DNA from: Chloroflexota bacterium
GTDB lineage: Bacteria > Chloroflexota > Dehalococcoidia > Bin125
NCBI GenBank assembly: GCA_028874365.1
Contig: JAPPJZ010000062.1
Coordinates: forward strand, 52,611 to 116,610
Reading direction: 5' to 3'
Length of the DNA stretch: 64,000 nt
The translations under genes and the position numbers were made by a program. Below, in pieces: positions 9,312 through 58,700 of the stretch. The notes under the pieces are model-generated. The model saw nothing but the letters and a program-made list of their open reading frames with translations. It was not told where the DNA came from and ran no database searches. Every line of letters starts with the position of its first letter. Positions within the stretch are counted from its first letter, which is position 1.

Positions 9312-12300
9312 CTACGCCGCCAGTCTGAGCGCACCGTGCAGCTCGATCCGCCGCAGGAACCACAGGAACGCGCCCAGATTGAGCGCAAACAGCGCTGACA
9401 ACGCGCCAAACAGGATGCCAACCCCCGGCCAGTCGATGATGAACTGCAGCGCCGGCACCACATCCCGACCATCCGGCGTGAGCGCGAAGAAGTCCAACAG
9501 CACCGCGCCCGCCTGCGTCCCCACGATCAGTCCCGCTCCCAGTCCAATCGCGATGATGATCAGTTGCTCCAGCGCGATCAATCCCAGAATCTGGCGCATG
9601 CTCATCCCGACGCTCTGACACACGGCAAACTCCACCCGTCGCGCCTGCGCTGTCACTGCGGTCAGCACCACCAGACCGAACGCCGACGCGATCGCCACCG
9701 CCGCCAGCGCGCCGATGAAGACCCCATTCCACGAAGCGACGATCAGCGGGTCGGCCGCCAGTTCCTCCCGGGCGCTCTCGATCGTGGCGATGCCATCGCT
9801 CTCGATCGGCAGCTCGTACCTGGCCAATAGACCGCCCCAGCGCTGCAGCGACGCCGACGCCCACAGTTCGTTGCTCACGGCCAGCGCCACGCCGGCCGCG
9901 GCGCTGCCATACAGCCGATCGATGAATGCCGCGCGATCGATCAACACGAGCGGATCATCGCGCTGCGGGTCGTAGCTCGGGAACGTCTCAAACTGCCCGC
10001 CGACGAGGAACGTCATCGAGGATGGCCCGATCCGCAGTTTGACCGTCTCGCCGATGTTGAGCCGTCCCTGTGCGATGGCCTCCGCCGAAAACAACGCCGG
10101 CAACGGGCCCCGATCCGCGATGTAGCGCACCCCGCGCAGCGACGATGGGATCGCATTCCAGCGATAGCGCGCCTCTGTTTCGGTGACGACGAAGAAGTCG
10201 AGCGGCTCCTCGCCGACCTCCAGGGGCGTCGCCTCCCAGCGTCCTGAGCTGAAATCGGCCAACAGGTAGCTCTCGCCACGCCGGGCGTAGCTCAGATCGC
10301 CAAGCAAGATTTCTCCCCCGGCGCGTGTGAGCGCCAGGTCAAGCGACACCAGTGTCAGTGGCGCGACTGGACGCTCAGCCACCGTGGGGCTGAACCTGCT
10401 TTGCCCCTGGATCAGCCGAGCGCCCTCCAGAGGCAGATAGGCCGCCGGTTCCTCCGTTAAGCGGTTCGAGATCGTGATCCACTCCGGATCTTCTTGAACC
10501 TGAGTGGGACTGAGCGTGTCAATCGCATACCACCAGTAACGTCCGATCGCGTCCAGCACCTTGATGCCGATCACGGTCTCCTGCTCGAGCTGCACAACCG
10601 CAATCCGTAGCTCCAGCAGGCCCCCAAAATCGTCGATCACCGCTCCCTGGACTTCGTTAAGCGGTACCGCAATCTGCTGCAGGTCCGCCGGCGGCAACGC
10701 CCAGTCAGCCCCTTGTTCGGCCAGCTGATCGGCAACCACCTCGGAGTCCAACGCAGCGATCTGCAGATGACCCGAGTCTTCATCCCCTTCGAACGCCCCC
10801 ACGATCCGCTTGATCTGTGCCACCGATGCACCGCTGGCGTCCTCAATCGCCTCATATTGAACAATGTCCGAGACCGGCTCGGTCAGCCGTACCGACGCGC
10901 CCACCGCGTGCAGCGAACGATCGTTGTAAGACGTGTCGAGCGTCGTCCGGAACGAGGCCGCAAACACCGCCAGCGCACCCGCGATCGTCAGCAACAGCAC
11001 CGTCCGCGCGTAGTGCGTCGGTGTGCGACCCAGATACCAGGCGCCCATCAGCAGCGTCAGCGAGCGCCAGGGCGACGCAAGCCGGGCCAGCAGCCGCATC
11101 GTCGGTGGGAACAAGCGCAGCACGATTAGCCCAACCACGAACAGCAACACGGTCGGCGTCGCGACCGCCAGCCAGTCCAGCCGCGTCTCACCGACCAACG
11201 GCGAATCGATCGGATCGCCGGCCCATTGCAGTTCGAAGATCAGCAGAGCGCCCAGCGCTGCTACAGCCGCGTCGATCAGGGCGCGCTGCGTCCATGATGC
11301 GGGCGGCCGACCGCGCTCCCGGCGGGTCGTGACCATCGTCTGGCGAGTCGCCCGGTACGTCGGCACTGCCTGAGCCAGCAGCGCCAGCACCCCTGCGCCC
11401 ACGGCCAGGTACCACGACTCGACCGGCAGCGAGACCGGCAGGAACGGACCCGCGCCGGTAGCGGCCAGCGCCTCATCGAAGGGCGGCACGAACCCCAACA
11501 GACTGACCAGCCCCATGCCGATCAGCGGCCCCAGCAATATCGCCGGAGCGGTCAGAATCGCAGCCTCGACGATGTGCATCACGGCGACATCGCGCTGCCG
11601 GGCGCCTCGCGAACGTAGCCAGGCCGTGTCCTCGGTGCGTTGCTCGGCGAGCATCGCCGATGCCACCACCGCATAGACCAACACCGCGCCCACGAGCTGC
11701 AGCACGATCATCAATAGCGTCGACTGGGCAAACTGGAAGCGTTGGCTGAACCCGACCAGCGTGTCGACCAGTTCCGTCTCCTGCTGGATACCGTCCACGG
11801 ACTGCGAGATTCGCCGAGTCATCTGCTCCAGCGAATCGGCCGCCGCAGACGCTTCCGCCGCCGACGCGCCGTGCAAGTCGGTCCGGAACCGCTGCAGCAA
11901 CGACAGACGCAACGTGGGCGACTGCTCGGCCAGAATGCCGAGAATCCCCTCCCGCGTGGTCCAGAACCGCAGTTCCGTGTCCAGCGCCGCGATCGGCAGG
12001 AACAGCGGATCGAGCGTTGACCAACGCCGCTCGTCGGTCGACGGCTCGATGATCCCGACAATCCGCACGCGAGTCTCATGCTCGGTGCCCAGCCAAAACG
12101 GTTGCGCCAGTCGTTCGTCTCCAACGTCGAGTCCAAAGTCCTGCGCCTGCCTCCGCTCGACCATCACCTCCAACAGATCAGTCGTTGCCTCCGGTCTACG
12201 GCCGGCCACGACTTCTGAGAGGTCCGCCACATCGCTCTGCGCAACGAACGTGGCGTGATCGGCGTCCGGCGGATCGAACGGCTGCTCCTCGGTTCGCAGG

Positions 12301-12659
12301 ATGTATCCACCGGTACGGAGCGCCGTCATTCGGCCAACCGTGAGCGACGAGGCCGCCGCCGAGACTTCGTCATGGATCAGCGACTCAACGTCGTCAACTG
12401 ACGCTGAGTCCGCGGTCACGTTGGTCTGATTGAATCGCAGGTCCAGCGTTGCCGGATCGGCATCCGCGAGCGTCTGCCGCAGTCCCAGATCACGCACCGC
12501 TTCGATGAAGATCGGCGCGCTGCTCGCCAGGCCCACCGCCAGCAGCGCCCCGATCAGCAGCACCGTCGAGAGCCTGGGCGCCGAAGCGATACGCCGCAGC
12601 GCCAGTCTGCCGAGCTCTCGGGCCGTTTCACCGCGTCGAGTCGGAATCTGCTGCGACAT
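9312..12659 (-). CDS. ABC-transporter permease, FtsX-like double-domain (YbbP/MacB-type), 1115 aa
   Basis: Two FtsX modules, each with a large extracytoplasmic loop; C-terminal FtsX signature ...SVGMSMRQILGLIALEQL.... Confidence 0.8.
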   Translation of the reverse strand: MSQQIPTRRGETARELGRLALRRIASAPRLSTVLLIGALLAVGLASSAPIFIEAVRDLGLRQTLADADPATLDLRFNQTNVTADSASVDDVESLIHDEVSAAASSLTVGRMTALRTGGYILRTEEQPFDPPDADHATFVAQSDVADLSEVVAGRRPEATTDLLEVMVERRQAQDFGLDVGDERLAQPFWLGTEHETRVRIVGIIEPSTDERRWSTLDPLFLPIAALDTELRFWTTREGILGILAEQSPTLRLSLLQRFRTDLHGASAAEASAAADSLEQMTRRISQSVDGIQQETELVDTLVGFSQRFQFAQSTLLMIVLQLVGAVLVYAVVASAMLAEQRTEDTAWLRSRGARQRDVAVMHIVEAAILTAPAILLGPLIGMGLVSLLGFVPPFDEALAATGAGPFLPVSLPVESWYLAVGAGVLALLAQAVPTYRATRQTMVTTRRERGRPPASWTQRALIDAAVAALGALLIFELQWAGDPIDSPLVGETRLDWLAVATPTVLLFVVGLIVLRLFPPTMRLLARLASPWRSLTLLMGAWYLGRTPTHYARTVLLLTIAGALAVFAASFRTTLDTSYNDRSLHAVGASVRLTEPVSDIVQYEAIEDASGASVAQIKRIVGAFEGDEDSGHLQIAALDSEVVADQLAEQGADWALPPADLQQIAVPLNEVQGAVIDDFGGLLELRIAVVQLEQETVIGIKVLDAIGRYWWYAIDTLSPTQVQEDPEWITISNRLTEEPAAYLPLEGARLIQGQSRFSPTVAERPVAPLTLVSLDLALTRAGGEILLGDLSYARRGESYLLADFSSGRWEATPLEVGEEPLDFFVVTETEARYRWNAIPSSLRGVRYIADRGPLPALFSAEAIAQGRLNIGETVKLRIGPSSMTFLVGGQFETFPSYDPQRDDPLVLIDRAAFIDRLYGSAAAGVALAVSNELWASASLQRWGGLLARYELPIESDGIATIESAREELAADPLIVASWNGVFIGALAAVAIASAFGLVVLTAVTAQARRVEFAVCQSVGMSMRQILGLIALEQLIIIAIGLGAGLIVGTQAGAVLLDFFALTPDGRDVVPALQFIIDWPGVGILFGALSALFALNLGAFLWFLRRIELHGALRLAA

Positions 12660-15600
12660 CAGTCGGCGCCCTCCCGCAGCAGAGGAGCCGCTTCACGGCC
12701 CGTCGCCCAGCGTGAGATCGCGGTCGTGCCCAGCACCGCACATAACACGATCACCCCGACACCGATACCGGCCAGGACCCAGTCGATCGACAGCACCGTC
12801 GGCGGCGCAGCCGCCACCCCTTCAGCCGTGACGTCGAGGAACGCCAACAGCGCGCCCGCCACTGCCCGCCCCAGGCCGAACCCCAGCGCCACACCGGCCG
12901 CCAACACGAGGCCGACTTCCACCGCGGCTTGCGCGGTCAACCCGGCCCGACCTGAGCCGACGGTCCGCATCAGCGCAAACTCGCGAGCCCGCTCGCCGCC
13001 GGCCGCCGCGAGTGTGAAGATCAGCGCCGCCGATCCCACGATCAAGAGTCCGATGAACCCGACCACGAACAACGCCGCCGCCCCGCCCGAGCGAAACGGA
13101 TCCTCCTCCGCCGCCACGATCTTCGCCTCCGCGTCGAACACTGTGCTGGACAGATACACATCGTCCAGCAGCTCGGCGGCAATCAGGCGTCCCGCATTGC
13201 TTTCTGTCGCAGTCCACACCTCCGTGATCGGCAGCACCGCCTGAACCGCCGCGACCAGCGCCGCCCCCCGCAGCGCTAGGAGATCCACGATCAGGAACCC
13301 GCCCTGCGCCGGATTGAGCGTGGGAAAGTAGTCAACGGCCGACTGAATCCGGACCGGGATGGTCGCATTGCTGACACCGATCGGGACGATGTCGCCGACA
13401 CTGAGGTTGGCGGTCTCCATCGACGTTCGATCCATCGCCGCATTGACCGGCAGGTTCGGCGATTCGCGCACGATGATTCGCTCATCGCTGGCCGCAAGCT
13501 GCGACCAGTGGTAGCGCAGACCTCCGCCCTCGAACGAAATCCGGTCTTCGCCCGCGCCGCCTGAGGCCGGCAGCCACGGTCCAGCCTCGTCAAACGCATC
13601 CACCGCGACGGATTGCTCCCCGACCTGCGCGTTCAAGTCGTCCATGTACAACGTCCCGGTCGGCGCTCGAACCACCCGCGCCTGCGGACGCAGAATGATC
13701 GCCGCGATCCGCAGTGGTTGCTCGAGCCCGCCCAGAGGCGCGCGAAACGTGTTCCAGTCCCCGTCAACCACGGAAGCCGTATTCGTCCGAAACGGGCGCA
13801 TGTGCACCTGTCCACGGGCGTCGAGCACCCGCGCCGCCAGTTCAAGATTGCTGTTCCCCGGATTGCTGCGCACGCGAACCGTCAACGCCTCCGCCCCGTC
13901 CGGCAACTCCTGCCCGGCTCGCCCCGGCTCACGCTCGATCGCCGCCAACAGCTCGTCCGGCGGCGTGCCCAGCAAGTCCTCGTCCAGCGCCACGATCTCG
14001 GACAGCCGACTCGTCTGCAGCCCCAGCAGCACGACGCGGCTGCCTTCCCGATCGCCGCCGATCGCGCCGATCCCGCGATACGCCGCTGCCGCGCTGATTC
14101 CCTGACGGCTCTGCAGCGGCTCCGTCACCCGGCCCACCGTCGAGTTCGACAGGTTGCCGCCGATTGACACCCCGCGCAGGTCCGAACCGACCTCATATTC
14201 AATCCGCGACCGCTCGACGGTCCGAATCGTCGACGCATACGTCGCCGAGATCAGTCCCACGGCCGTGATGAACGCAACCAGGGCCGTCAGCAACATCGGG
14301 CCCGTCGGATTCCGAGCCACGCTGAGCACCCCGAGGTACAACCACGACGGAATCGGTGATCTCGAGAGCAGTGCCGCCGCGAAGCCCCACACCCGCGGGG
14401 CGACCCGCATGATCGTCAGTGCCGCGCCCAGCAGAAGCAGTCCGGGGCTCAGCATCAGCACCGGATTGATCCCGCCCGACTCAAACGCGGCCAGCGCCCC
14501 GCCCGACGCTTCGGTCTCGAACTGAAGAAACAGCACCGTTGCCAGCGCCAGCAATGCCACGTCGAGCCACGCCCGTTGCACCAACGACTGCCGCTGCGGG
14601 CGCCCCTGCGCCACGCGCTCGTTCGTCCGCTGCCGCGCATCGAACCAGGCCGGCGCCGCAAACGCGATCCAGGCGATCACCGCGCCCGCAACTGCCAGCC
14701 CCCACGCCTCCGCCGTCAGCCGCGTATCGAACGGCTCGCCGCCCGAGACCCGAGCCACTGCCTCCAATCGACCGGCATGACTCAACGCAAAAGCCGCCAG
14801 CGGCGCGCCGAGAATCGCCGCCGGTAGAGCCGCGACCCCGCCGAGCATCGCCTGCGCCCCGGCCTGCTGCCATGGTTTCGCTCCGCGAGCCGCGAGCCGT
14901 TCGCGATCGACCCGAGTCCGCTGCGCCATCACGCGTCCGACCAGCGCCACGCCGAACATCGCCACCGCGGCGATCTGCAAACCGGCCAACAGCGACTGCC
15001 CTGCCGAAAACTGCGCCTGGCGTACGAACGTCTGCAGCGTGCCCACCAGGAGCGTGCCCGCCGAGCCACCCTCCAGGCGACTCAGCTGTTGTTGCCACGC
15101 GCCCAGCGACTCGATCACGGCCTCAACCTGGTCGGAGTTAATCGCTCCGGTGTCCAGTTCCGTCCGCATCCGATGCGTCACCGGAGCTCCGAGTCGCTCC
15201 AGCGCGTCGGGCTCGGCGAACATGCCGAAATACGGCACCTCCGCGCCGCCCAGCGTGATATCGAACTGCAACTCGAACCAGACGTCCGTGTAGTGGAACG
15301 CCAGCACCCGCGTGACATCGTCCACGACCGGTTCGATGATCCCGCTGATTTCGAACTGCATCGCCTCGCTGAAACTGACCACGCTGCCGACATCGATGCT
15401 GAGCTGCTCGGCGAGCCGCGCGCCGATCACCACCTCGTCCGCCGAACCGGCCCAATCGCCCCGCACCAGCCGCGCGTTCGTCCGCAGTTGCTCGAACGAC
15501 ATCAGATACGCCAGCAGGGACTCGTTCAGACCGTTGTCGAGGCGCGTAAACCCGGCGAACGTCTCGGGAGTCTCCATGATCCGCCGTGTGTCGCTGGCCA

Positions 15601-15901
15601 GACCTGGGAACCGCTCCAGATGCCGCTCGCGGGCTTCCGCCGCTTCTCGCTCGATGCGATCGAAGTCCTCAGCGCTCGCCGGACGGAAGGCCCGCGAATG
15701 GTCCGCGAACGTGGTCCCCCGCGGCGATTGCTCGATCAACTCGCGAAGCGCGAGGTCGGCCGACGCCGCTCGAAAGACGAGCGGCAACGCCACGAGCGCG
15801 GCGGCGATGATCAGCAGCGACGCAGCCCCGAACATCAATAGCCAACCGCCCCGCAGTTCGCGTAGGGCGGCGAGCCTGAGTAGGCGGAAAAGTCCAAGCA
15901 T
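12659..15901 (-). CDS. ABC-transporter permease, FtsX-like double-domain, 1080 aa
   Basis: Same architecture as neighbour; C-terminal FtsX ...MRTVGSGRAGLTAQAAVE...; start overlaps the stop of the downstream gene (translational coupling). Confidence 0.8.
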   Translation of the reverse strand: MLGLFRLLRLAALRELRGGWLLMFGAASLLIIAAALVALPLVFRAASADLALRELIEQSPRGTTFADHSRAFRPASAEDFDRIEREAAEARERHLERFPGLASDTRRIMETPETFAGFTRLDNGLNESLLAYLMSFEQLRTNARLVRGDWAGSADEVVIGARLAEQLSIDVGSVVSFSEAMQFEISGIIEPVVDDVTRVLAFHYTDVWFELQFDITLGGAEVPYFGMFAEPDALERLGAPVTHRMRTELDTGAINSDQVEAVIESLGAWQQQLSRLEGGSAGTLLVGTLQTFVRQAQFSAGQSLLAGLQIAAVAMFGVALVGRVMAQRTRVDRERLAARGAKPWQQAGAQAMLGGVAALPAAILGAPLAAFALSHAGRLEAVARVSGGEPFDTRLTAEAWGLAVAGAVIAWIAFAAPAWFDARQRTNERVAQGRPQRQSLVQRAWLDVALLALATVLFLQFETEASGGALAAFESGGINPVLMLSPGLLLLGAALTIMRVAPRVWGFAAALLSRSPIPSWLYLGVLSVARNPTGPMLLTALVAFITAVGLISATYASTIRTVERSRIEYEVGSDLRGVSIGGNLSNSTVGRVTEPLQSRQGISAAAAYRGIGAIGGDREGSRVVLLGLQTSRLSEIVALDEDLLGTPPDELLAAIEREPGRAGQELPDGAEALTVRVRSNPGNSNLELAARVLDARGQVHMRPFRTNTASVVDGDWNTFRAPLGGLEQPLRIAAIILRPQARVVRAPTGTLYMDDLNAQVGEQSVAVDAFDEAGPWLPASGGAGEDRISFEGGGLRYHWSQLAASDERIIVRESPNLPVNAAMDRTSMETANLSVGDIVPIGVSNATIPVRIQSAVDYFPTLNPAQGGFLIVDLLALRGAALVAAVQAVLPITEVWTATESNAGRLIAAELLDDVYLSSTVFDAEAKIVAAEEDPFRSGGAAALFVVGFIGLLIVGSAALIFTLAAAGGERAREFALMRTVGSGRAGLTAQAAVEVGLVLAAGVALGFGLGRAVAGALLAFLDVTAEGVAAAPPTVLSIDWVLAGIGVGVIVLCAVLGTTAISRWATGREAAPLLREGAD

Positions 15902-16990: not shown

Positions 16991-18286
16991 ATGTTCATTG
17001 GCTACTTCACGGAACGTCCCTACCAGGACTTCGAATCGGGCTGGGTCGGAGCGACCGGCCGCGAAATCGAGGACCTCGGGATGACCAATGGGGATTACGA
17101 CCCCCGGATCGGCGCCGAGCTCTACAACCGCTACCTCGACGAGAAGGTCTACGCCGAGGAGATGGGCTTTGACGGCCTGATGCTCAACGAGCATCACTCC
17201 ACCCCGTTCTGCATGGGCGGCGTGATGAACGTCGAAGCCGCGATCCTCGCCCGGATCACCAAGCGCGCCAAGATCGTGCTGCTCGGCAACGTCCTCCCGA
17301 TCTGGGAAGACCCTCTGTGGCTGGCCGAGGAACTGGCCGAGATCGACATGATCTCCCGGGGCCGCCTGGTTACGGGTTGGGTCCGCGGCACCGGCCGCGA
17401 ATCGGTTGCCCACAACTCGCAGGCGCCCTTCAACTGGGAGCGCTTCCAGGAAGCCCACGACTTCGTCGTCAAGGCCTGGTCGACCCCCGGCCCCTTCCGC
17501 TGGGAAGGCGAGCACTACCAGTACCGCTACGTCAACCCCTGGGCGCGCCCCTACCAGGAGCCGCACCCCCAGATCTGGATCCCTGGCGTGATGTCGCGTA
17601 ACACGGTCAAGTGGTGCGCCGAGCATCGCTACCCCTACGTCATGCTCGCCACCGAGATCGAGCCGACCAAGAAGTCGTTCGACTACTACGATGAGGTCGC
17701 GCAGGAAAACGGCTACGAGGCCTCGACCGAGCACCACGGCTACCTCTTCAAGGTCCACGTCGACGAGACCGAAGAACTGGCCGAGGAAGCCGGCCGCAAG
17801 TACATCTCCGGACCGGCCAACCCGTTCCTCGAGGGCAACCAGGGCACCGTCCGCAGCAACCTGCAGAACCTGCCCGGTCTGACTTCGCGCACCCAGCTCC
17901 TGCCGACCGTCAGCACCTTCGCTGCCGCCGCGCGTGGACGCCAGGAGGAACAGAAGGCGGCCCTCGCAGAGAAGGAAGCCGAAACCGACAAGCGCGACGC
18001 CGACGCCTTCGGCACCTACGAGGAACAGGTCAACAAGTACTCCATCATCACGGGTACCCCCAAGACCGTGATCCCCAAGATCCGCCACGTCCTTGAAGAG
18101 CTGCGCCCCGGCAACATCTTCTTCTGGGACGGCGACGGCGCCATGAACCACGACGACGCGATGCGCTCCCTCCGCCTCTTCGGCGAGGAAGTCATCCCCG
18201 CCGTCCGCGAAATGGGCAAGGAACTCGATCTCAAGGGAGCCTTCGAGGTCAACACCCTCACCGGAGACCCAATGTCCGGCGACTAA
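16991..18286 (+). CDS. LLM-class flavin-dependent oxidoreductase (luciferase-like monooxygenase)
   Basis: TIM-barrel LLM signature GFDGLMLNEHH, 431 aa. Confidence 0.85.
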   Translation: MFIGYFTERPYQDFESGWVGATGREIEDLGMTNGDYDPRIGAELYNRYLDEKVYAEEMGFDGLMLNEHHSTPFCMGGVMNVEAAILARITKRAKIVLLGNVLPIWEDPLWLAEELAEIDMISRGRLVTGWVRGTGRESVAHNSQAPFNWERFQEAHDFVVKAWSTPGPFRWEGEHYQYRYVNPWARPYQEPHPQIWIPGVMSRNTVKWCAEHRYPYVMLATEIEPTKKSFDYYDEVAQENGYEASTEHHGYLFKVHVDETEELAEEAGRKYISGPANPFLEGNQGTVRSNLQNLPGLTSRTQLLPTVSTFAAAARGRQEEQKAALAEKEAETDKRDADAFGTYEEQVNKYSIITGTPKTVIPKIRHVLEELRPGNIFFWDGDGAMNHDDAMRSLRLFGEEVIPAVREMGKELDLKGAFEVNTLTGDPMSGD

Positions 18287-18311
18287 TCTCGCACCCGGTT
18301 CGACCAACAGA

Positions 18312-18350
18312 GACCCGCGCCCCCTGCACTGGGGCGCGGGTCTTCTGCGT
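18312..18350 (+). terminator. rho-independent terminator after LLM gene
   Basis: GACCCGCGCCCC-tgcact-GGGGCGCGGGTC followed by TTCTGCGTT, 25 nt after stop. Confidence 0.6.
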
Positions 18351-18355
18351 TAACC

Positions 18356-18525
18356 CCTCCGTCATTCCCCCCTTCTCCCGTCACTCCCGCCTTCTCCTCT
18401 TCATTCCCGCCCTCTCCCCGTCATTCCCGCGAAAGCGGGAACCCATACCGCCGCAGCGAACGGCACCTCCCACCAGAGCCCAATCCCATCCCTCAGTCAT
18501 TCCCGCGCTTGCCGCGGGAATCTCG
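18356..18525. repeat. family-C repeat cluster: 3.5 degenerate ~20-bp tandem units (GTCATTCCCnCC-TTCTCC) followed by two GTCATTCCCGCG hairpin units
   Basis: GTCATTCCCGCG-aaa-GCGGGAAC at 18420-18443 and GTCATTCCCGCG-cttg-CCGCGGGAATCTCG at 18496-18525; a third copy lies at 34777-34808. Confidence 0.7.
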
Positions 18526-18564
18526 CCTTGGTCCGCACCGACCTTCATTCAACTCCCTTTCGGG

Positions 18565-18600
18565 CTCCCTCTCCCTCTGGGAGAGGGTTGGGGTGAGGGC
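18565..18600. repeat. family-B hairpin repeat (CTCCCTCTCCC-tctg-GGAGAGGGttGGGGTGAGGGC)
   Basis: Recurs at 19430, 33176, 50281 and, in reverse orientation, at 51914 and 52003. Confidence 0.7.
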
Positions 18601-18691
18601 CGCCCCTTCCGACAACCACGATACACCAACCACGAACACCCTTTCTGTATAGTGACCAGAACGTACGTTCACGCTCAGAGAGGGTCCGACC

Positions 18692-19387
18692 ATGCACATC
18701 CCACCCAACCAACGTCGACGCGCCATCCAGGGCCACTACCTCCGCCAACGCGGCCACTCGCTGCGCCAGATCGCCGAACAGCAGAACCTCTGCCCCGACA
18801 TCGTCCGCTCCGACCTCAAGCTCGTCGAAACCCATTGGAGCTCGATCGCCGCCGCGGCTGCCGACGACCTTCTGCTCGAATCGCTGCAGCTCCTCAGGAT
18901 CAGGCTCTCGCTCGCCATCAAGAACGACGATGTCTCCAACAACGCCGAACGCCTCACCCCGGTCGAGTACCTCCGTGCACGCGATGCCCAGGAAACCGGG
19001 CTCAACAACCTCGCCCGCGAAATCCGCCGCACCGCCCAGGACGTCCACCGACGAGCCGCACAGCGCGCCGACCAACCCGACCTCTACGACGATGTACCGC
19101 AAGAACCAGGCGAAAACACTCCAGAACTAGTCAAAACTGACCACCCCGATCGCACGATCTCCAGTCCAGAGCAGAAGATCGTCGAATCTAAGCCCCAGCA
19201 AGAAAAAATTCCCGCGGAAACCGCCCACCTGCCCGATCAGCCCGAGTATGACCCTCTGATCGAGGAGGTCTTCAACGAATTCCCCCACCTCAGAGGCCAG
19301 TCAACCGAGCAAATCCTCGCCTTCCTCGACCAACTCACTGATCCCGAAGCATCGGAGCCCGCTGTCTACGCCGAGGCCGCCGGCTAG
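18692..19387 (+). CDS. hypothetical protein with N-terminal HTH; C-terminal half compositionally atypical (lower GC, E/P/Q-rich)
   Basis: RRRAIQGHYLRQRGHSLRQIAEQQNL resembles sigma-70 region 4 or terminase small-subunit HTH; gene is bracketed by repeat clusters. Confidence 0.5.
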   Translation: MHIPPNQRRRAIQGHYLRQRGHSLRQIAEQQNLCPDIVRSDLKLVETHWSSIAAAAADDLLLESLQLLRIRLSLAIKNDDVSNNAERLTPVEYLRARDAQETGLNNLAREIRRTAQDVHRRAAQRADQPDLYDDVPQEPGENTPELVKTDHPDRTISSPEQKIVESKPQQEKIPAETAHLPDQPEYDPLIEEVFNEFPHLRGQSTEQILAFLDQLTDPEASEPAVYAEAAG

Positions 19388-19429
19388 GCCCCCAAAGGCC
19401 CCTCTCTTCTGGTTCCCGCTCCTTCCGGT

Positions 19430-19508
19430 CCCCTCTCCCTCTGGGAGAGGGTTAGAGCCTGCCCCCGCGAAGGCGGGGGGTGAGGGTCCCGCGAAGCCCG
19501 CCCCGCAC
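19430..19508. repeat. composite B+A hairpin repeat
   Basis: CCCTCTCCCTCTGGGAGAGGG + CCCCCGCgaagGCGGGGGG + GGGTCCCGCgaagCCCGCCCC. Confidence 0.65.
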
Positions 19509-21292: not shown

Positions 21293-21300
21293 GGGCCAAT

Positions 21301-21356
21301 CCCCTCTCCCCCCGCCGCAGGCGGGGGGAGATGTCCCGTAGGGACAGAGGGGGGCA
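21301..21356. repeat. family-A nested-hairpin repeat
   Basis: CCCCTCTCCCCCCGC-cgcag-GCGGGGGGAGATG-tcccgtaggga-CAGAGGGGGGCAC. Confidence 0.75.
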
Positions 21357-22702: not shown

Positions 22703-22756
22703 AGCTTGTCGCTGCCGCTCTCCCTGCGCAGCGGGCGTTTCGCCGACCTCCCCGTT

Positions 22757-22807
22757 CCCCTCTCCCCCCGCGCAGCGGGGGGAGATGCCGAAGGCAGAGG
22801 GGGGCAC
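22757..22807. repeat. family-A nested-hairpin repeat (identical to copy at 38691)
   Basis: cccctctccccccgcgcagcggggggagatgccgaaggcagaggggggcac, 51/51 identical to 38691-38741. Confidence 0.8.
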
Positions 22808-22915
22808 ACCAACACGCGCTGATGCTGCGCTGTCCTCACAGGCGCCCGCCCGCCCCCACGCTTCCGCCATTGCACCTATCCTGTCGGGACAACCCATGGC
22901 ACGACAGGACCTCCG

Positions 22916-31814: not shown

Positions 31815-31841
31815 TGTGGTAGCTCCAATCGCGTCTCGCTT

Positions 31842-31893
31842 CCTCCCCTCGCGTCAGCGGGGGGAGGTGTCCCGTAGGGACGGAGGGGGGCAC
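31842..31893. repeat. family-A nested-hairpin repeat
   Basis: cctcccctcgcgtcagcggggggaggtgtcccgtagggacggaggggggcac. Confidence 0.7.
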
Positions 31894-33175: not shown

Positions 33176-33210
33176 CTCTCCCCCTGGGAGAGGGATGGGG
33201 TGAGGGTTCC
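33176..33210. repeat. family-B hairpin repeat
   Basis: ctctccccctgggagagggatggggtgagggttccc. Confidence 0.65.
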
Positions 33211-34608: not shown

Positions 34609-34776
34609 ATGTGGCACCTCTCCAGAAACGTCCGTGCGCGGGTACGAAAAGTCGGTCAAGCCCGCGCGATTGCTCTACAAGCGCAATATAGGACATGAGA
34701 GGCTTCCAATTGAGTACGTGTGCGTACCATTTCGATTGACTTTGCGGCGCGTGTTGGTTCAGCGAGCCAGGAATTC

Positions 34777-34808
34777 GTCATGCCCGCTCTTGCCGCGGGT
34801 ATCTCGAC
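34777..34808. repeat. family-C hairpin repeat
   Basis: gtcatgcccgctcttgccgcgggtatctcg, 26/30 match to 18496-18525. Confidence 0.6.
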
Positions 34809-34961
34809 CAAATGGGCACGGACTTCAATCACACCGTGGCGAGATTGCTGCGACGGAACGCGGCAATGACGAGGTGACAGTCGACTGGTTTGGGCAGCCC
34901 AACCCGTCGCTATACTGCGCAGCAACTTCAGCAATTCCGTACTCAGTGCCTGGAGCGCTCT

Positions 34962-38615: not shown

Positions 38616-38690
38616 CTTGACCTCATTTCAGGTTCAGCATCGAGCGATGGCCAAATGATAGGCGAACCACGAATCGGCCGAATCTCCACT

Positions 38691-38742
38691 CCCCTCTCCC
38701 CCCGCGCAGCGGGGGGAGATGCCGAAGGCAGAGGGGGGCACT
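38691..38742. repeat. family-A nested-hairpin repeat (identical to 22757 copy)
   Basis: See 22757-22807. Confidence 0.8.
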
Positions 38743-38861
38743 CCAAGCCGTCGCTCTCCCGACCCGGGAACTATATCCCGCTTTACATCGTCTAGCTCCC
38801 TAACGGGGCGGCAGCCGGTCGTCAATCTGGCGCCCCGAGAACAGTCGGTCAGGAGGACCAC

Positions 38862-40721: not shown

Positions 40722-40750
40722 CACCCTCACTACCGCCATTCCCTTTCTAC

Positions 40751-40797
40751 CCCCGCCGGCAGGCGGGGGGAGATGTCACGAAGTGACAGAGGGGGCG
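40751..40797. repeat. family-A nested-hairpin repeat
   Basis: cccccgccggcaggcggggggagatgtcacgaagtgacagagggggcgc. Confidence 0.7.
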
Positions 40798-40885: not shown

Positions 40886-41212
40886 ATGCCCAACCCCTAC
40901 CACTTCCGAGCACGGATCGACCGAATCTGCCGGCGCGCCTTCGGCAACGGACCCGGCTACCTCCGCCTCAAGGCCCTCAACACTCTCGTCCGCGAACTCC
41001 ACGCCCCCAACGACCGAGCCCGGGCCAACCACCAGATGTATCTCGCCACCGACCCCTACGACGTCGCCCGCCACCAGCTCCGCTACCTCCACGACTCCGC
41101 CTCTCTTTCCTCTCTCCCCCCGCCGTCAGGCGGGGGGAGATGTCTCGTAGAGACAGAGGGGGGCCTCCCACAGGACCAACAACGACCCGACGAAGACGAC
41201 GACCCCTTGTAG
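40886..41212 (+). CDS. small conserved hypothetical protein (MPNPYHFR... family), paralog of 49854..50159; contains an in-frame family-A repeat
   Basis: About 45% identical over the first 73 aa to the minus-strand ORF at 50159; shared MPNP(Y/F)H(F/Y)R N-terminus and ...EDDDPL C-terminus; GGGAGC SD. Confidence 0.45.
   Translation: MPNPYHFRARIDRICRRAFGNGPGYLRLKALNTLVRELHAPNDRARANHQMYLATDPYDVARHQLRYLHDSASLSSLPPPSGGGRCLVETEGGLPQDQQRPDEDDDPL
41110..41166. repeat. family-A repeat embedded in frame in ORF 40886..41212
   Basis: cctctctccccccgccgtcaggcggggggagatgtctcgtagagacagaggggggcc, translated as SLSSLPPPSGGGRCLVETEGG. Confidence 0.7.
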
Positions 41213-43922: not shown

Positions 43923-45215
43923 CTACAACAACGCTTCGTAGACGCCCTTCTCGAAGTCGGTCTCCAGGTACGCGACGGGGTTGAACTGGTACATGAACAC
44001 GTGGGTGAAGAACAGTCCGGCGAGGTTCTCGGCCGGGTCAACGAAGAACCACGTGCCCGCGGCGCCGCCCCATCCGTATGTGCCGACACTGCCGGGATAC
44101 GCCGTGCCGGCGATCCGGTCGCGCACCGCGTATCCGAACCCGAATCCAAATCCGGGGCCGGCCAAATCGATCTCCGTTCCGCAGATCGCGCCGAGGTGGT
44201 TCGCGGTCATCAGCTCAATCGTCTTCCGACCGAGTACACGCACCCCGTCCAGTTCTCCGCCGTTGAGCAGCATCGCGGCGAAGCGCGTGTACGCCGCCGG
44301 CGTCATCAGCACGCCACCGTACAGTCCGTTGCCGGATATCTGCTGGCCCAGCGACTCGCGCACCTTGTGCGAGGTCTCGGGCCGCTCGACCGGATTGAGC
44401 GCGCCCTCCTCGGACCAGTGGTGATTGGTGACCAGTCGAGCGGCATCGCCAGGCGGACAGTAGAAGCCACAGCCCTCGACCCCCAGCGGTCCAAAGATCC
44501 GCTCCTGGAAGAGCTCGTCGAGGTTCTGCCCGGTCGCTCGTTCGAGCAGCAGGGTCAGGACATCGAAATCCGCCGCATACTCCCACGCCGCGCCGGGCTG
44601 CCGCGCGTTGGGGAGCTGCGCCATCTGCAGCACGCGTGTCTCCGCCGACACCGACGTATCGACAACGCCCGGGTTGGTGATCCCGAATTCGGTACCGCTC
44701 CAGGCCGGTTCGAGCAGCGGAAACATCCCCGACGGAATGTTGCCGAACGATGGCAAGCCCGATGTCATCGTCAGCAGATCGCGAATCGTGATCTGCCTGA
44801 CCATCGGCACCGTCTGGCCCATCAGCAAGCCCTGTCCACGGACCTTGTTGGGTGGATCGAACGGGGCCAAGACCTGGCGGTTCTCGAACTCCGGCAGCCA
44901 CTTCGTGATGGGCTCGTCAACGTAGAAGACGCCCTCCTCCTGCAGTTGCATCGTCAGCGCGGCCGTGACCGGCTTGGTCTGCGAGTACATACGGAACAGC
45001 GCGTCGATCGGCAGCGGATTCTTGCGTTCCGAATCCAGGTACCCGTGCGACGAGACGTGCGCGAGATGACCATGCCGAAGCAGAACCGTCACCACGCCGG
45101 GGACCTCGTCGTTCTCAACAGCTTGCGCCATGCGAGCGTCAACACGTGCCAGCCGCTCGGCGTCGATACCGAGCGAGGCAGGATCGGCGGCAGGAAGATT
45201 GGCAAAGTCGGACAT
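43923..45215 (-). CDS. beta-lactamase-family (class-C-like) serine hydrolase
   Basis: SQTK (SxxK) motif; start MSDFANLP at 45215 (track ORF extends to 45458). Confidence 0.75.
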   Translation of the reverse strand: MSDFANLPAADPASLGIDAERLARVDARMAQAVENDEVPGVVTVLLRHGHLAHVSSHGYLDSERKNPLPIDALFRMYSQTKPVTAALTMQLQEEGVFYVDEPITKWLPEFENRQVLAPFDPPNKVRGQGLLMGQTVPMVRQITIRDLLTMTSGLPSFGNIPSGMFPLLEPAWSGTEFGITNPGVVDTSVSAETRVLQMAQLPNARQPGAAWEYAADFDVLTLLLERATGQNLDELFQERIFGPLGVEGCGFYCPPGDAARLVTNHHWSEEGALNPVERPETSHKVRESLGQQISGNGLYGGVLMTPAAYTRFAAMLLNGGELDGVRVLGRKTIELMTANHLGAICGTEIDLAGPGFGFGFGYAVRDRIAGTAYPGSVGTYGWGGAAGTWFFVDPAENLAGLFFTHVFMYQFNPVAYLETDFEKGVYEALL

Positions 45216-45297
45216 GATCGGCTCCTTGCTGAAAGACTGGCCTGTCGAGGATAGGCGCTGGGATCGCGTAGTCTCGGCATGATCAAGGGAGGTCGGC

Positions 45298-46509
45298 ATG
45301 GCGTACGAGTATGACCGCAACATCCGCGACAGGGTGGCGGTGATCGGTGTCGGCGAGACGGAGTACACGAAGCACGGACGCATCGGGCGTCCGGAGTTCC
45401 GCCTCGCCCTCGAGGCCATCCTCGCCGCCTGCGCCGACGCAGGACTCGAACCACGCATGTTGGATGGCTTCTCCTCCTACTCCGCCGATCGCAACGATCC
45501 CAACCGGCTCTCGACGGCGCTCGATCTGCCCCACTACGCCTTCGCCTCGATGGTCTACGGCGGAGGTGGTGGAGGCGTCTGCGCGGCGATCGGCAACGCA
45601 GCCGCCGGCATCGTCGCCGGCTATGCCAACTTCGTCGTGGTCTACAGAGCCCTGGCGCAGGGCGAGTTCGGTCGCTTCGGCCAGTCACGCCGGGGCGGCC
45701 GGCTGCGAGGTCAGTACGCCTTCAATGTGCCCCAGGGCCTGATGTCGCCGGCACAGTTCCTGGCAATGAAGATGCAACGCCATATGTACGAGTACGGAAC
45801 TACGTCCGAACATCTGGGACACATCGCTGTCGCCGCGAACAAGCATGCGCAGAACAATCCCCGCGCGGTGATGAACGGACGGCCGATCACGCTGGAAGAT
45901 CATCAGAACTCCCGCATGATCGCCGACCCATATCGGCTCTACGACTGCTGCCTCGAGACCGATGGCGCAGCGGCAATGATCCTCACCACCGCGGAGATCG
46001 CCCGCGACTTCACCGACAAGCCGGTCTACCTGGCGGCTTCTGTGCAGGGCTCCGGCCATCGACAGGGCAACGTGGTGGATGGCTTCTGGCACGACGACTT
46101 CATGAGTTCCAACTACACGACGATGGTCGACCGGCTGTATTCGGCCGCAGGCATGGGCCCGGACGAGATCGACTGCGGTCAATTCTACGAGAACTTCACC
46201 GGCCAGGTGCTGACCTCGTTTGAGGACCACAAGTTCTGCGAGGTCGGCGAGGGCGGCCCCTTCTGCGAAGGCGGACGACTTGAGACGAAGCAGGTCGCCG
46301 AGCCCGGCGCACCGTACGCGGGCGAGTTCCCGATCAACACCTCCGGCGGCAATCTGTCCGAGGCATACACCCACGGATTCAATCTCGCCGTCGAAGCAAT
46401 CCGTCAGCTGCGAGGCGACTCGTCCAATCCGGTCGAAGGCGCGAGAACCTGCATTGTCGCGGCCGGTCCGGCGTCCGCGCCAATCTCGTCGGCGATCTTC
46501 CGCAACTGA
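45298..46509 (+). CDS. thiolase-like protein, SCP-x / lipid-transfer (Ltp) type
   Basis: Thiolase fold without the classic active-site Cys motif; GGGGGG loop; usual partner DUF35 lies nearby. Confidence 0.75.
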   Translation: MAYEYDRNIRDRVAVIGVGETEYTKHGRIGRPEFRLALEAILAACADAGLEPRMLDGFSSYSADRNDPNRLSTALDLPHYAFASMVYGGGGGGVCAAIGNAAAGIVAGYANFVVVYRALAQGEFGRFGQSRRGGRLRGQYAFNVPQGLMSPAQFLAMKMQRHMYEYGTTSEHLGHIAVAANKHAQNNPRAVMNGRPITLEDHQNSRMIADPYRLYDCCLETDGAAAMILTTAEIARDFTDKPVYLAASVQGSGHRQGNVVDGFWHDDFMSSNYTTMVDRLYSAAGMGPDEIDCGQFYENFTGQVLTSFEDHKFCEVGEGGPFCEGGRLETKQVAEPGAPYAGEFPINTSGGNLSEAYTHGFNLAVEAIRQLRGDSSNPVEGARTCIVAAGPASAPISSAIFRN

Positions 46510-46516
46510 GCCCGCG

Positions 46517-47551
46517 CTAGGAGAGCGCCCGCTTGATGCAGTGACTGGTCGGTAGCGAATGCTCTCCAGCCTCTCGCTGGGCGATCGCCTGCCCGAGCAT
46601 CTGCCCGATCTGATTCTGCAACTTGCGGGAACGCGTCCAGCCGATGAAGCTCTCCTGCATGATCGTCACCACATAGCGGGGTTGCGATCCGAGCCAGGGC
46701 GGAGCCAACCAGATGGCGGCGCTGTTCATCCGCACGAGGGCGCGCACCCTGCTCGCCTGTGACCGGAGCGGCGAGTCGCCGACTTCCTCTGCTTCTGCCT
46801 CGTCTTCGGCCCGCTGGAGGTCGCGTATGAGCAAGGCCGCGTCCTCGTAGTCGCGCGGGTTGATCTTTGCGATGGGATCGTCGTCCTCGGATTCGGGGAT
46901 CGTGAAGTTGCCGGTCTTGATCAGCGACTCCCAGCCGGGAAGCATGGGTTCGGGGATCGTTGCGCCCCAGCGGTGGTTGTCGACTACCTCGCGGAGCAGG
47001 TCGAAGCCATCGGCCCGCGCGTCGTGCGGGACGGACTCGGATCGCGCCAGCGCGGCGAAGAGCCGGGCCAGATGGATCGGCTCGGCCCGGCTGGCGCCCC
47101 AGCGGCTGCGATGGGTGAGTTCGATCAGTTCCGGAACGCCCCAGCGTTCGTAGTACTCGGTCAGTCCGGCCAGGCCGCCGATCATCGACAGCAAGGTGGT
47201 CACGTCGGGATTCTGCGACCAGGCGACCATGTAGAACAGGGCGTCACGTTGCAGCTTGGTCAGCTCCCTCCCCTCGTCGTACGCATCGCTGAGGATGGCC
47301 CAGGCGATGGGCGGCTTGATCACGCTATGCAGGGCGTATGGTCCCGAGTGGCCGCCGGTCCAGATCGTCTCGGTTTCCAGGTCATAGACCGCAGCGCCGA
47401 TCACGGCGTCAACGCTCAGCACTTGACGTTCGAATTCGTTCGAGAGGGCGCACAGCGGGGCGTCGGCCGAGGCCGGTCGGGGGACCGCGATCAAGATCAG
47501 GGCAGGGAGCATCAAGGCGGGCAACAGGGCGAGGGCGGGCAGTCGGCGCAT
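46517..47551 (-). CDS. secreted class-A-beta-lactamase-fold serine hydrolase
   Basis: Signal peptide; all three class-A motifs present: SVIK (SxxK), SQN (SDN-loop variant), KTG. Confidence 0.6.
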   Translation of the reverse strand: MRRLPALALLPALMLPALILIAVPRPASADAPLCALSNEFERQVLSVDAVIGAAVYDLETETIWTGGHSGPYALHSVIKPPIAWAILSDAYDEGRELTKLQRDALFYMVAWSQNPDVTTLLSMIGGLAGLTEYYERWGVPELIELTHRSRWGASRAEPIHLARLFAALARSESVPHDARADGFDLLREVVDNHRWGATIPEPMLPGWESLIKTGNFTIPESEDDDPIAKINPRDYEDAALLIRDLQRAEDEAEAEEVGDSPLRSQASRVRALVRMNSAAIWLAPPWLGSQPRYVVTIMQESFIGWTRSRKLQNQIGQMLGQAIAQREAGEHSLPTSHCIKRALS

Positions 47552-50224: not shown

Positions 50225-50312
50225 GGCCCCCGCCTTCGCGGGGCCAGCACTCAATGGTTGGCGGAGGGGCAGGCTCTAGCCCTCTCTCCCTCGGAGAGGG
50301 GATCAGAGGGGC
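50225..50312. repeat. GGCCCCCGC-cttc-GCGGGGCC hairpin plus family-B repeat
   Basis: cctctctccctcggagaggggatcagagggg at 50281-50312. Confidence 0.6.
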
Positions 50313-51913: not shown

Positions 51914-52050
51914 ACCCTCACCCTAACCCTCTCCCACGGGGAGAGGGGATCTGGCGGGGGCTCACTCACACCTTCTCCCAATGAGAGCGGGTTCGCAGGG
52001 AGACCCTCACCCTAGCCCTCTCCCAGGGGAGAGGGGACCAGAGGGGAGCA
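51914..52050. repeat. two tandem family-B repeats in reverse orientation
   Basis: ccctcaccctaaccctctcccacggggagagggg and ccctcaccctagccctctcccaggggagagggg. Confidence 0.7.
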
Positions 52051-58602: not shown

Positions 58603-58646
58603 TGCCCCCCTCTGCCTGCGGCATCTCCCCCCGCGGAGCGGGGGGA
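58603..58646. repeat. family-A repeat, inverted orientation, partial
   Basis: gcccccctctgcctgcggcatctccccccgcggagcggggggag. Confidence 0.6.
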
Positions 58647-58700
58647 GAAAAAATCCGAAGAGCTTAGGCTGAGGCCCCCACGAGGGTGTCGGCGGCCTAT

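Follow-up and report, generated by a model that had tools for sequence, protein, structure and literature searches.

The compound repeat block in the spacer between a luciferase-like monooxygenase gene and a 231-aa gene of the 64-kb window (the whole stretch of DNA analyzed) is very probably a small cluster of hairpin repeats of the Neisseria Transformation Sequence (NTS)/Ssn-related motif (SRM) type. A fuller reading is also likely, in which the hairpins would be nicked as single-stranded DNA (ssDNA) by an SsnA-like nuclease of the lineage, and the ladder of short units in front of them would stem from duplication of the hairpin left half. It is a known kind of element in a host lineage that is not discussed in the main text of the founding paper, where Chloroflexota are not mentioned (PMC11893778). 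The assignment extends the Ssn/SRM system to Chloroflexota genomes whose sample names are of sponge type, explains for genome annotation a class of intergenic “mystery” repeats, and removes a false CRISPR lead. SRM-type repeats probably generate spurious small ORFs.

As reported in the preliminary description, the block of structured repeats is bounded by a hairpin downstream of the preceding gene and by the next gene's start, and it begins with a short tandem array of ~20-bp units. Tandem Repeats Finder (TRF) placed this array at 18359–18430, with a period of 20, 3.7 copies, 83% matches and a score of 98. Three degenerate units start at 18361, 18380 and 18400; each is 19–20 nt long and consists of a GTCATTCCCGC-like stretch followed by a C/T-rich linker. 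The last “copy” of the TRF array is the left half of the first complete hairpin (unit 1), which is in effect the last unit of the tandem array. The array had been described as running directly into two hairpins; both are present and fold, but only the first follows directly, the second lying 76 nt further on. A 48-nt segment separates the two complete units, which lie on the same strand.

The stem of unit 1 is formed by TTCCCGC (18424–18430) and GCGGGAA (18435–18441), giving 7 bp around a GAAA loop, with a C directly after the palindrome; its predicted ssDNA fold has a free energy of -8.5 kcal/mol (z = -4.1 vs. shuffles). Unit 2 pairs ATTCCCGCG (18499–18507) with CGCGGGAAT (18513–18521) in a 9-bp stem around the 5-nt loop CTTGC, with a fold of -10.7 kcal/mol (z = -3.9 vs. 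shuffles). The 11-mer GTCATTCCCGC, allowing ≤1 mismatch, occurred nine times in the window compared to 2.34 ± 1.41 times in shuffled sequences, none of 100 shuffles reaching nine, and five of the nine sites fell within 18361–18506, all on the + strand. A looser search of the window with a 12-mer and two mismatches was not above chance (16 sites, 13.9 expected). A second, independent assembly, made from another sample (L002), has exactly the same spacer sequence, which is therefore not an assembly artefact. The TRF array, the 11-mer excess, the folds and the identity with L002 together confirm the observation.

Table 1. Features of the repeat block, its flanking genes and other repeats of the window.
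Feature	Position	Strand	Basis
Luciferase-like monooxygenase gene, upstream of the spacer	16991–18286	+	PF00296 match
G+C-rich hairpin, 13-bp arms, 7-nt loop	18311–18343	+	Inverted repeat I3, 100% complementary
Orphan left half 1, GTCATTCCCCC + linker CTTCTCCC, without right arm	18361–18379	+	TRF; 1 mismatch to GTCATTCCCGC
Orphan left half 2, GTCACTCCCGC + linker CTTCTCCTC	18380–18399	+	TRF and 11-mer search
Orphan left half 3, TTCATTCCCGC + linker CCTCTCCCC	18400–18419	+	TRF and 11-mer search
Complete SRM/NTS-like unit 1, CGTCATTCCCGCGAAAGCGGGAACCCAT	18419–18446	+	SRM pattern match, DNA fold
Complete SRM-like unit 2, AGTCATTCCCGCGCTTGCCGCGGGAATCTCG	18495–18525	+	Inverted repeat I8, DNA fold
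Palindrome of another repeat family, CCCTCTCCC-TCT-GGGAGAGGG + TTGGGGTGAGGGC	18567–18600	+	Inverted repeat I9
231-aa gene, downstream of the spacer	18692–19387	+	No Pfam or NCBIfam match
Decayed composite, two inverted SRM-like units, ~95 nt	34776–34871	.	Both arms ≤1 mismatch to the 11-mer
Second repeat family, copies	21297–21353, 22749–22812, 31833–31889, 38683–38746, 40739–40795, 41106–41162, 58603–58648		
Third repeat family, copies	18567–18600, 19429–19455, 33181–33207, 50276–50311, 51923–51958, 52003–52029		

The G+C-rich hairpin at 18311–18343 lies 25 nt 3′ of the monooxygenase stop codon and is terminator-like, without a proper T-run; it fails a strict terminator scan. In orphan left half 3 (18400–18419) the arm TTCCCGC is intact and GTC is changed to TTC. 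Unit 2 is followed by a conserved 3′ tail, TCGCCTTGGTCCGCACCGACC, so that unit and tail together occupy 18495–18543. The palindrome at 18567–18600 adjoins the SRM cluster and falls outside the SRM family. Elements of two families, A and B, had been described immediately downstream of the hairpins; one family was recovered, at 18567–18600, but a separate “family B” was not identified in the spacer.

The paper of Chenal et al. (2025) was reached via a full-text literature search for GTCATTCCCGC. It defines the NTS as CGTCATTCCCGCGMAVGCGGGAATCYRG, together with a related form, NTSvar, and a degenerate search pattern for the SRM, HGTCWYN(0-2)YYVSBRHN(0-5)WNVSBRGN(0-2)RNCYNB (PMC11893778). SsnA is a 94-aa single-domain GIY-YIG protein that binds the hairpin only as ssDNA and on one strand only, and cuts a few nt upstream of it; cutting and binding depend most on the GTC that precedes the palindrome and on the C that follows it (PMC11893778). 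The enzyme remains active on stems split between two strands and on substrates with additional DNA at the loop position, the biochemistry being that of the Neisseria and Wolbachia enzymes only (PMC11893778).

Unit 1 is the sole match to the SRM pattern in the window and agrees with the 28-nt NTS consensus at 26 of 28 positions, with two substitutions, which places it in the SRM family by both consensus and pattern; it carries GGGAAC, not GGGAAT, resulting in a shorter stem. Unit 2 misses the pattern, by manual parse, at a single loop position (W), and combines NTS arms with NTSvar geometry (GTCAT, 7-nt arm, 5-nt loop, 7-nt arm, ATC). The GTC before the palindrome and the C directly after it are kept in both units, and the form is that of a semi-palindromic hairpin with an oriented 5′ GTC flank and a trailing C, as in the SRM family. 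The resemblance to NTS/SRM elements extends over the oriented core (CGTCAT, the TTCCCGCG arm, a short loop, the complementary arm and C) and over the setting: the repeats are intergenic, single or paired, belong to a family that is multi-copy in Chloroflexota/Dehalococcoidia MAGs, and in the lineage flank a ~95-aa single-domain GIY-YIG gene. They differ from the published elements in their host, which is of Chloroflexota/Dehalococcoidia type, in the 9-bp stem, 5-nt loop and conserved TCG... 3′ tail of unit 2, and in the fixed synteny of the ssnA-like gene of the lineage, between a carboxyl-transferase and a BNR-Sortilin gene. The density of SRMs in the source scaffold (78 kb) is low, at one cluster plus one decayed composite.

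The motif recurs elsewhere, as had been proposed, both in other copies in the window and in loci of the genome collection. The general pattern GTCATTCCCGCG-N(2-6)-GCGGGAA recurs in the viral-contig collection among the matches listed; the unit-2 pattern had no match in that collection. In the genome collection the unit-2 pattern was found in at least 119 stretches, which among the matches listed belong mostly to rumen Treponema-type MAGs and to Chloroflexota/Dehalococcoidia MAGs with 61–70% G+C, and chromosome OZ242034 carries at least nine loci with it. Among the matches listed, the 27-mer, extended by TCG and by a ~20-nt 3′ tail of similar sequence, is common to 62 copies in Chloroflexota loci, and the loop CTTGC of unit 2 is the commonest in Chloroflexota copies. 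Unit 2 is identical in its 27-mer and TCG to the commonest Chloroflexota/Dehalococcoidia copy among the matches listed, with a similar tail, and the same type of copy flanks the ssnA-like genes of relatives. Paired stem positions show covariation between variant arms (T:A/A:T, C:G/G:C, C:G/A:T). The strand of the units relative to local GC skew was split 33 vs. 18 in Chloroflexota loci, a weak bias (p = 0.049), and 16 vs. 19 elsewhere.

The RecA encoded in the window had its best named matches in Chloroflexi/Dehalococcoidia MAGs and in a protein labelled Geodia barretti, and was 84% identical to P0131. These matches, together with the recurrence of the window's other two repeat families in Dehalococcoidia loci and an ortholog of the 231-aa gene in L191, support placement of the window in the Chloroflexota/Dehalococcoidia lineage. 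From the sample and the MAG names, we infer that the source is a sponge symbiont.

A comparison of orthologous spacers had been proposed in the preliminary description, and one such spacer was compared, that of Chloroflexota IRC3_bin_11 (L191). This genome encodes an ortholog of the downstream 231-aa gene (78% nt and 61% aa identity), upstream of which, and in the same orientation, are an SRM (loop TATGC), a similar 3′ tail and degenerate left halves. The SRM of L191 sits at the place equivalent to unit 2; unit 1, a clean ladder and the neighboring palindrome family are absent from its spacer, so that unit 2, on this comparison, appears older than the rest of the block. The ~80 nt before the start of the 231-aa gene (18612–18691; CAACCACGAyACACCAAC...AGTGACCAGAACGTmCGTTC) are strongly conserved relative to L191 7580–7496 (- strand), the remaining spacer not, and are likely the promoter or 5′ leader of a lineage-specific gene. 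Scans of metagenomes with the downstream protein, as a single protein and as an alignment, found no relatives. Its N-terminus is helix-turn-helix-like by eye, and the gene is neighbored by genes for a halogenase-like flavoprotein and for MOSC, GNAT and aminotransferase proteins. A prophage boundary, with the 231-aa gene taken by eye for a small terminase subunit, was rejected, given the lack of a Pfam or NCBIfam match and the metabolic neighbors.

In relatives, the hairpins accompany a gene for an SsnA-like nuclease. In L140, a 96-aa gene (1277–1567) with a PF01541 match (E = 1e-16) is bracketed by SRMs at 1175 and 1585 that share one strand, both with an inverted partner after them; three orphan left halves with a 26-nt period lead up to the SRM at 1175. 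In a first set of 12 Chloroflexota-type ssnA-like loci, from MAGs and metagenomes, every locus had between one and eleven hairpins ≤500 nt from the gene. Nine further loci (L256–L264) carry the same 95–96-aa GIY-YIG gene, and in the six whose flanks were read (L256–L261) hairpins and orphan halves were present on both sides of the gene. The ssnA-like genes are found at L140 1277–1567 and L167 4041–4331, in L242–L251 and in L256–L264. The Chloroflexota SsnA-like protein matches PF01541, and its nearest solved structures are UPF0213 proteins (E = 8.5e-7); the protein family is large, with 1616 matches at E ≤ 1e-10 that bear no annotation beyond GIY-YIG nuclease family. A homolog (51–54% identity) is further encoded on four high-G+C contigs recovered by the general NTS scan, and on three of the four a hairpin lies ≤500 nt from it.

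In most of the longer loci the ssnA-like gene occupies one conserved place, between genes for a 520-aa carboxyl-transferase and a 326-aa BNR-Sortilin protein, which suggests that it is resident or domesticated rather than mobile. The arms of the flanking hairpins vary with the protein clade (CCCGCG, CCTGC, CCAGCG, CCAGGC and GCCGCG), and both sides change together. Such clade-specific arms, changed on both sides, are as expected from selection on the hairpin with co-evolving specificity, and suggest that enzyme and site form co-evolving pairs. These putative Chloroflexota enzyme/site pairs would be natural material for Ssn-based ssDNA tools.

A GIY-YIG gene was not found in the window, by regular expression or tblastn, or in 78 kb of the source scaffold, and no contig from the source sample ERZ23495530 was found among the Chloroflexota SsnA-like protein look-ups. 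Given this negative result for the 78 kb, use of the motif by a cognate nuclease in the source genome can only be argued by analogy, and is judged somewhat more probable than its non-use.

The following mechanism is proposed. Exposure of the + strand as ssDNA, e.g., in replication, repair or DNA uptake, would let every complete unit fold into a hairpin. By analogy with the SsnA of Neisseria and Wolbachia, the SsnA-like nuclease of the lineage would bind the folded unit and nick a few nt 5′ of CGTCAT, and the complementary strand and duplex DNA would stay uncut. The ladder would arise by repeated local duplication of the short 5′ linker, GTCAT and the left arm; judging from the repeat sequences, its likeliest cause would be replication slippage at the hairpin with subsequent decay of the copies, and the Ssn nick just upstream may be linked to the left-half duplication. 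More speculatively, orphan half 3 could pair with a lone right arm and create an alternative register, which is conceivable because its arm is intact and because SsnA cuts split stems and tolerates loop extensions.

Read by their sequence, the 20-bp units are orphan left halves of the hairpin and not a separate repeat. Their distribution was counted around 306 complete units with flanks in all loci collected, orphans being sought within ≤90 nt. Orphan left halves occurred upstream of 35 of these units (~11%) and downstream of five, the nearest orphan mostly lying 18–26 nt from the complete unit, while orphan right halves were not enriched (eight upstream and 12 downstream of the 306). This polar ladder is present in Chloroflexota (e.g., L140, L197, and L206), Treponema-type (L152) and other contigs, including one of Lachnospiraceae (L171). 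Each rung comprises GTCAT and the left arm, in some instances also the loop, plus a 7–15-nt linker; rungs recur every 18–26 nt, almost always on the 5′ side of the complete hairpin. In the clearer examples these elements are retained up to the point at which a right arm would start. In L010 (~10720–10830, - strand), four perfect 20-nt orphan-half units GTCATTCCCGCTTCCCATCC precede a complete NTS-like hairpin, and the perfection of the units suggests a very recent duplication. On one 13.5-kb contig of the viral collection (L019), there are 13 NTS-type matches at 89–1184.

The ladder goes unmentioned in the main text of PMC11893778, where the word “tandem” occurs zero times, and the polar half-site ladder may be undescribed so far. 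We infer that it comes from local duplication of the 5′ linker and left arm. It is possible, though doubtful, that the ladder is a general signature of Ssn repeats, either as the footprint of duplication provoked by the hairpin or the Ssn nick, or as a working part with alternative registers. If the first of these were true, the ladder would show the birth and growth of Ssn-type repeats; if the second, several left arms sharing one right arm would offer alternative cleavage registers. The block had been called a repeat nursery, which holds in the narrow sense only that the array resembles local duplication of the hairpin left half; under either reading of the ladder, if true, it would be a literal “repeat nursery”. 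As a clue to the multiplication of such repeats, the half-site ladder is cheap and testable.

The distant copy near 34.8 kb, previously presented as a third unit with a 26/30 match, is real and matches unit 2 at 27 of 30 positions, not 26, but it is the left arm of an inverted pair. This composite consists of a left unit at 34777–34806 (+) and a right unit at 34840–34870 (-), with ~33 nt between them, and its arms fold more weakly (z = -2.6 and -2.8). It is 78% identical over 102 nt to a better-preserved composite in L233, and its layout is as in the pairs beside the ssnA-like genes of L140 and L245. The composite and its relatives in L233, L140 and L245 resemble MITE-like inverted pairs in carrying SRMs as terminal inverted repeats; unlike MITE-like elements, they have no recognized target-site duplication and no evidence of transposition.

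Among the alternatives, the one that survives best is that the hairpins act at the level of transcription, as terminators, attenuators or mRNA-stabilizing stem-loops for the flanking genes, and it is improbable. The units do lie between two co-oriented genes, on the coding strand, and in L191 the orthologous gene has likewise retained an SRM upstream. Nevertheless, neither unit is followed by a T-run, the tails being CCCATACC and TCTCGCCTT, so that neither has the form of an intrinsic terminator, and terminator- and promoter-like sites were not found at 18200–18750. Downstream of the monooxygenase stop codon there is already another G+C-rich hairpin, and the unit is found in unrelated contexts, in both orientations, in many genomes. 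An Rfam search of the whole window returned only a tRNA and nothing on the repeats.

Slightly less probable is an origin as REP/BIME-type palindromes, maintained by a RAYT (Y1, IS200/IS605-like) transposase and not by a GIY-YIG protein. The two kinds of repeat look similar, both being short, clustered intergenic palindromes in both orientations, and inverted pairs such as the 34.8-kb composite also occur, an analogy between Ssn repeats and REP that was noted by the Ssn paper (PMC11893778). They share with REP/BIME the character of short extragenic palindromes, sometimes in inverted pairs, and presumed maintenance by a domesticated enzyme that recognizes single-stranded hairpins. They differ in the conserved flank and in the enzyme, which is of GIY-YIG type instead of a Y1 transposase. 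A GTAG 5′ feature is typical of RAYT-linked REPs. The conserved 5′ motif of the present repeats is CGTCAT, not GTAG, and in all loci of the lineage that were examined the neighboring gene encodes a GIY-YIG protein and no Y1 transposase, so that the repeats lack the GTAG-type 5′ end and, in those loci, the flanked Y1 gene of REP/RAYT systems. It is this flank motif and the GIY-YIG gene next to the repeats that disfavor REP/RAYT; the motif, moreover, matches the published NTS/SRM directly.

The repeats might also be attachment or target sites for a mobile element, or scars of its insertion or excision, which is rated a little lower again. A precedent exists in Neisseria, where dRS3 elements are integration sites of a neisserial filamentous phage (PMC1797815), and the orphan halves can be read as insertion scars. 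However, no integrase, transposase or phage genes were present among the neighbors tested, and orphan right halves are not enriched, as insertion into a hairpin would require, which disfavors the insertion-scar model. The dRS3 element itself is defined as a 20-bp ATTCCC-N8-GGGAAT sequence flanking RS elements of 50–150 bp in NIME arrays (PMC1797815), whereas unit 1 reads ATTCCC-N8-GGGAAC and unit 2 ATTCCC-N11-GGGAAT, so that neither is a dRS3. Common to both systems are clustered intergenic ATTCCC...GGGAAT palindromes with short intervening segments (Bentley et al., 2007; PMC1797815); the present block differs in having no 50–150-bp RS families and no long arrays, and in belonging to another phylum.

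A degenerate CRISPR remnant, suggested by the superficial look of short direct repeats only, was rejected on anatomy and is highly improbable, since the units have a period of 19–20 nt, run head-to-tail without spacers and are half-palindromes of a known, different family, and since, in agreement with the preliminary description, neither regular 23–50-nt repeats with unique spacers nor cas domains in the neighboring genes tested were found.

Other repeat families are also present in the window. The second family, TCTCCCCCCGCnnAGCGGGGGGAGATG(C/T)C..GAAGG..CAGAGGGGGG, consists of two adjacent hairpins and has seven copies, several of them directly after stop codons; it had no Rfam match, and copies that are 93–98% identical occur in the Dehalococcoidia MAG loci L128, L149, and L163. 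The third family, CCCTCTCCC-N3-GGGAGAGGG followed by TTGGGGTGAGGG, occurs in both orientations in the window and also in Dehalococcoidia loci, e.g., in L173 at 93%. Read as the reverse complement, its tail is ~75% similar to the orphan-half units, maybe by chance, given the C/T-rich composition.

The GC skew of the + strand turns from negative to positive at ~45000–47000, with a cumulative minimum at ~46 kb, independent of gene strand. The ORFs tested at ~45000–47000 (beta-lactamase-like, thiolase-like, MFS) included neither dnaA nor another replication gene, and the switch could be a replication origin, a terminus or a rearrangement point. Upstream of the block, a pair of neighboring FtsX-type permease genes of great length (1115 and 1080 aa) occupies 9312–15901 (- strand); in the second assembly (L002) one of them appears as two ORFs, suggesting a frameshift or an assembly difference.
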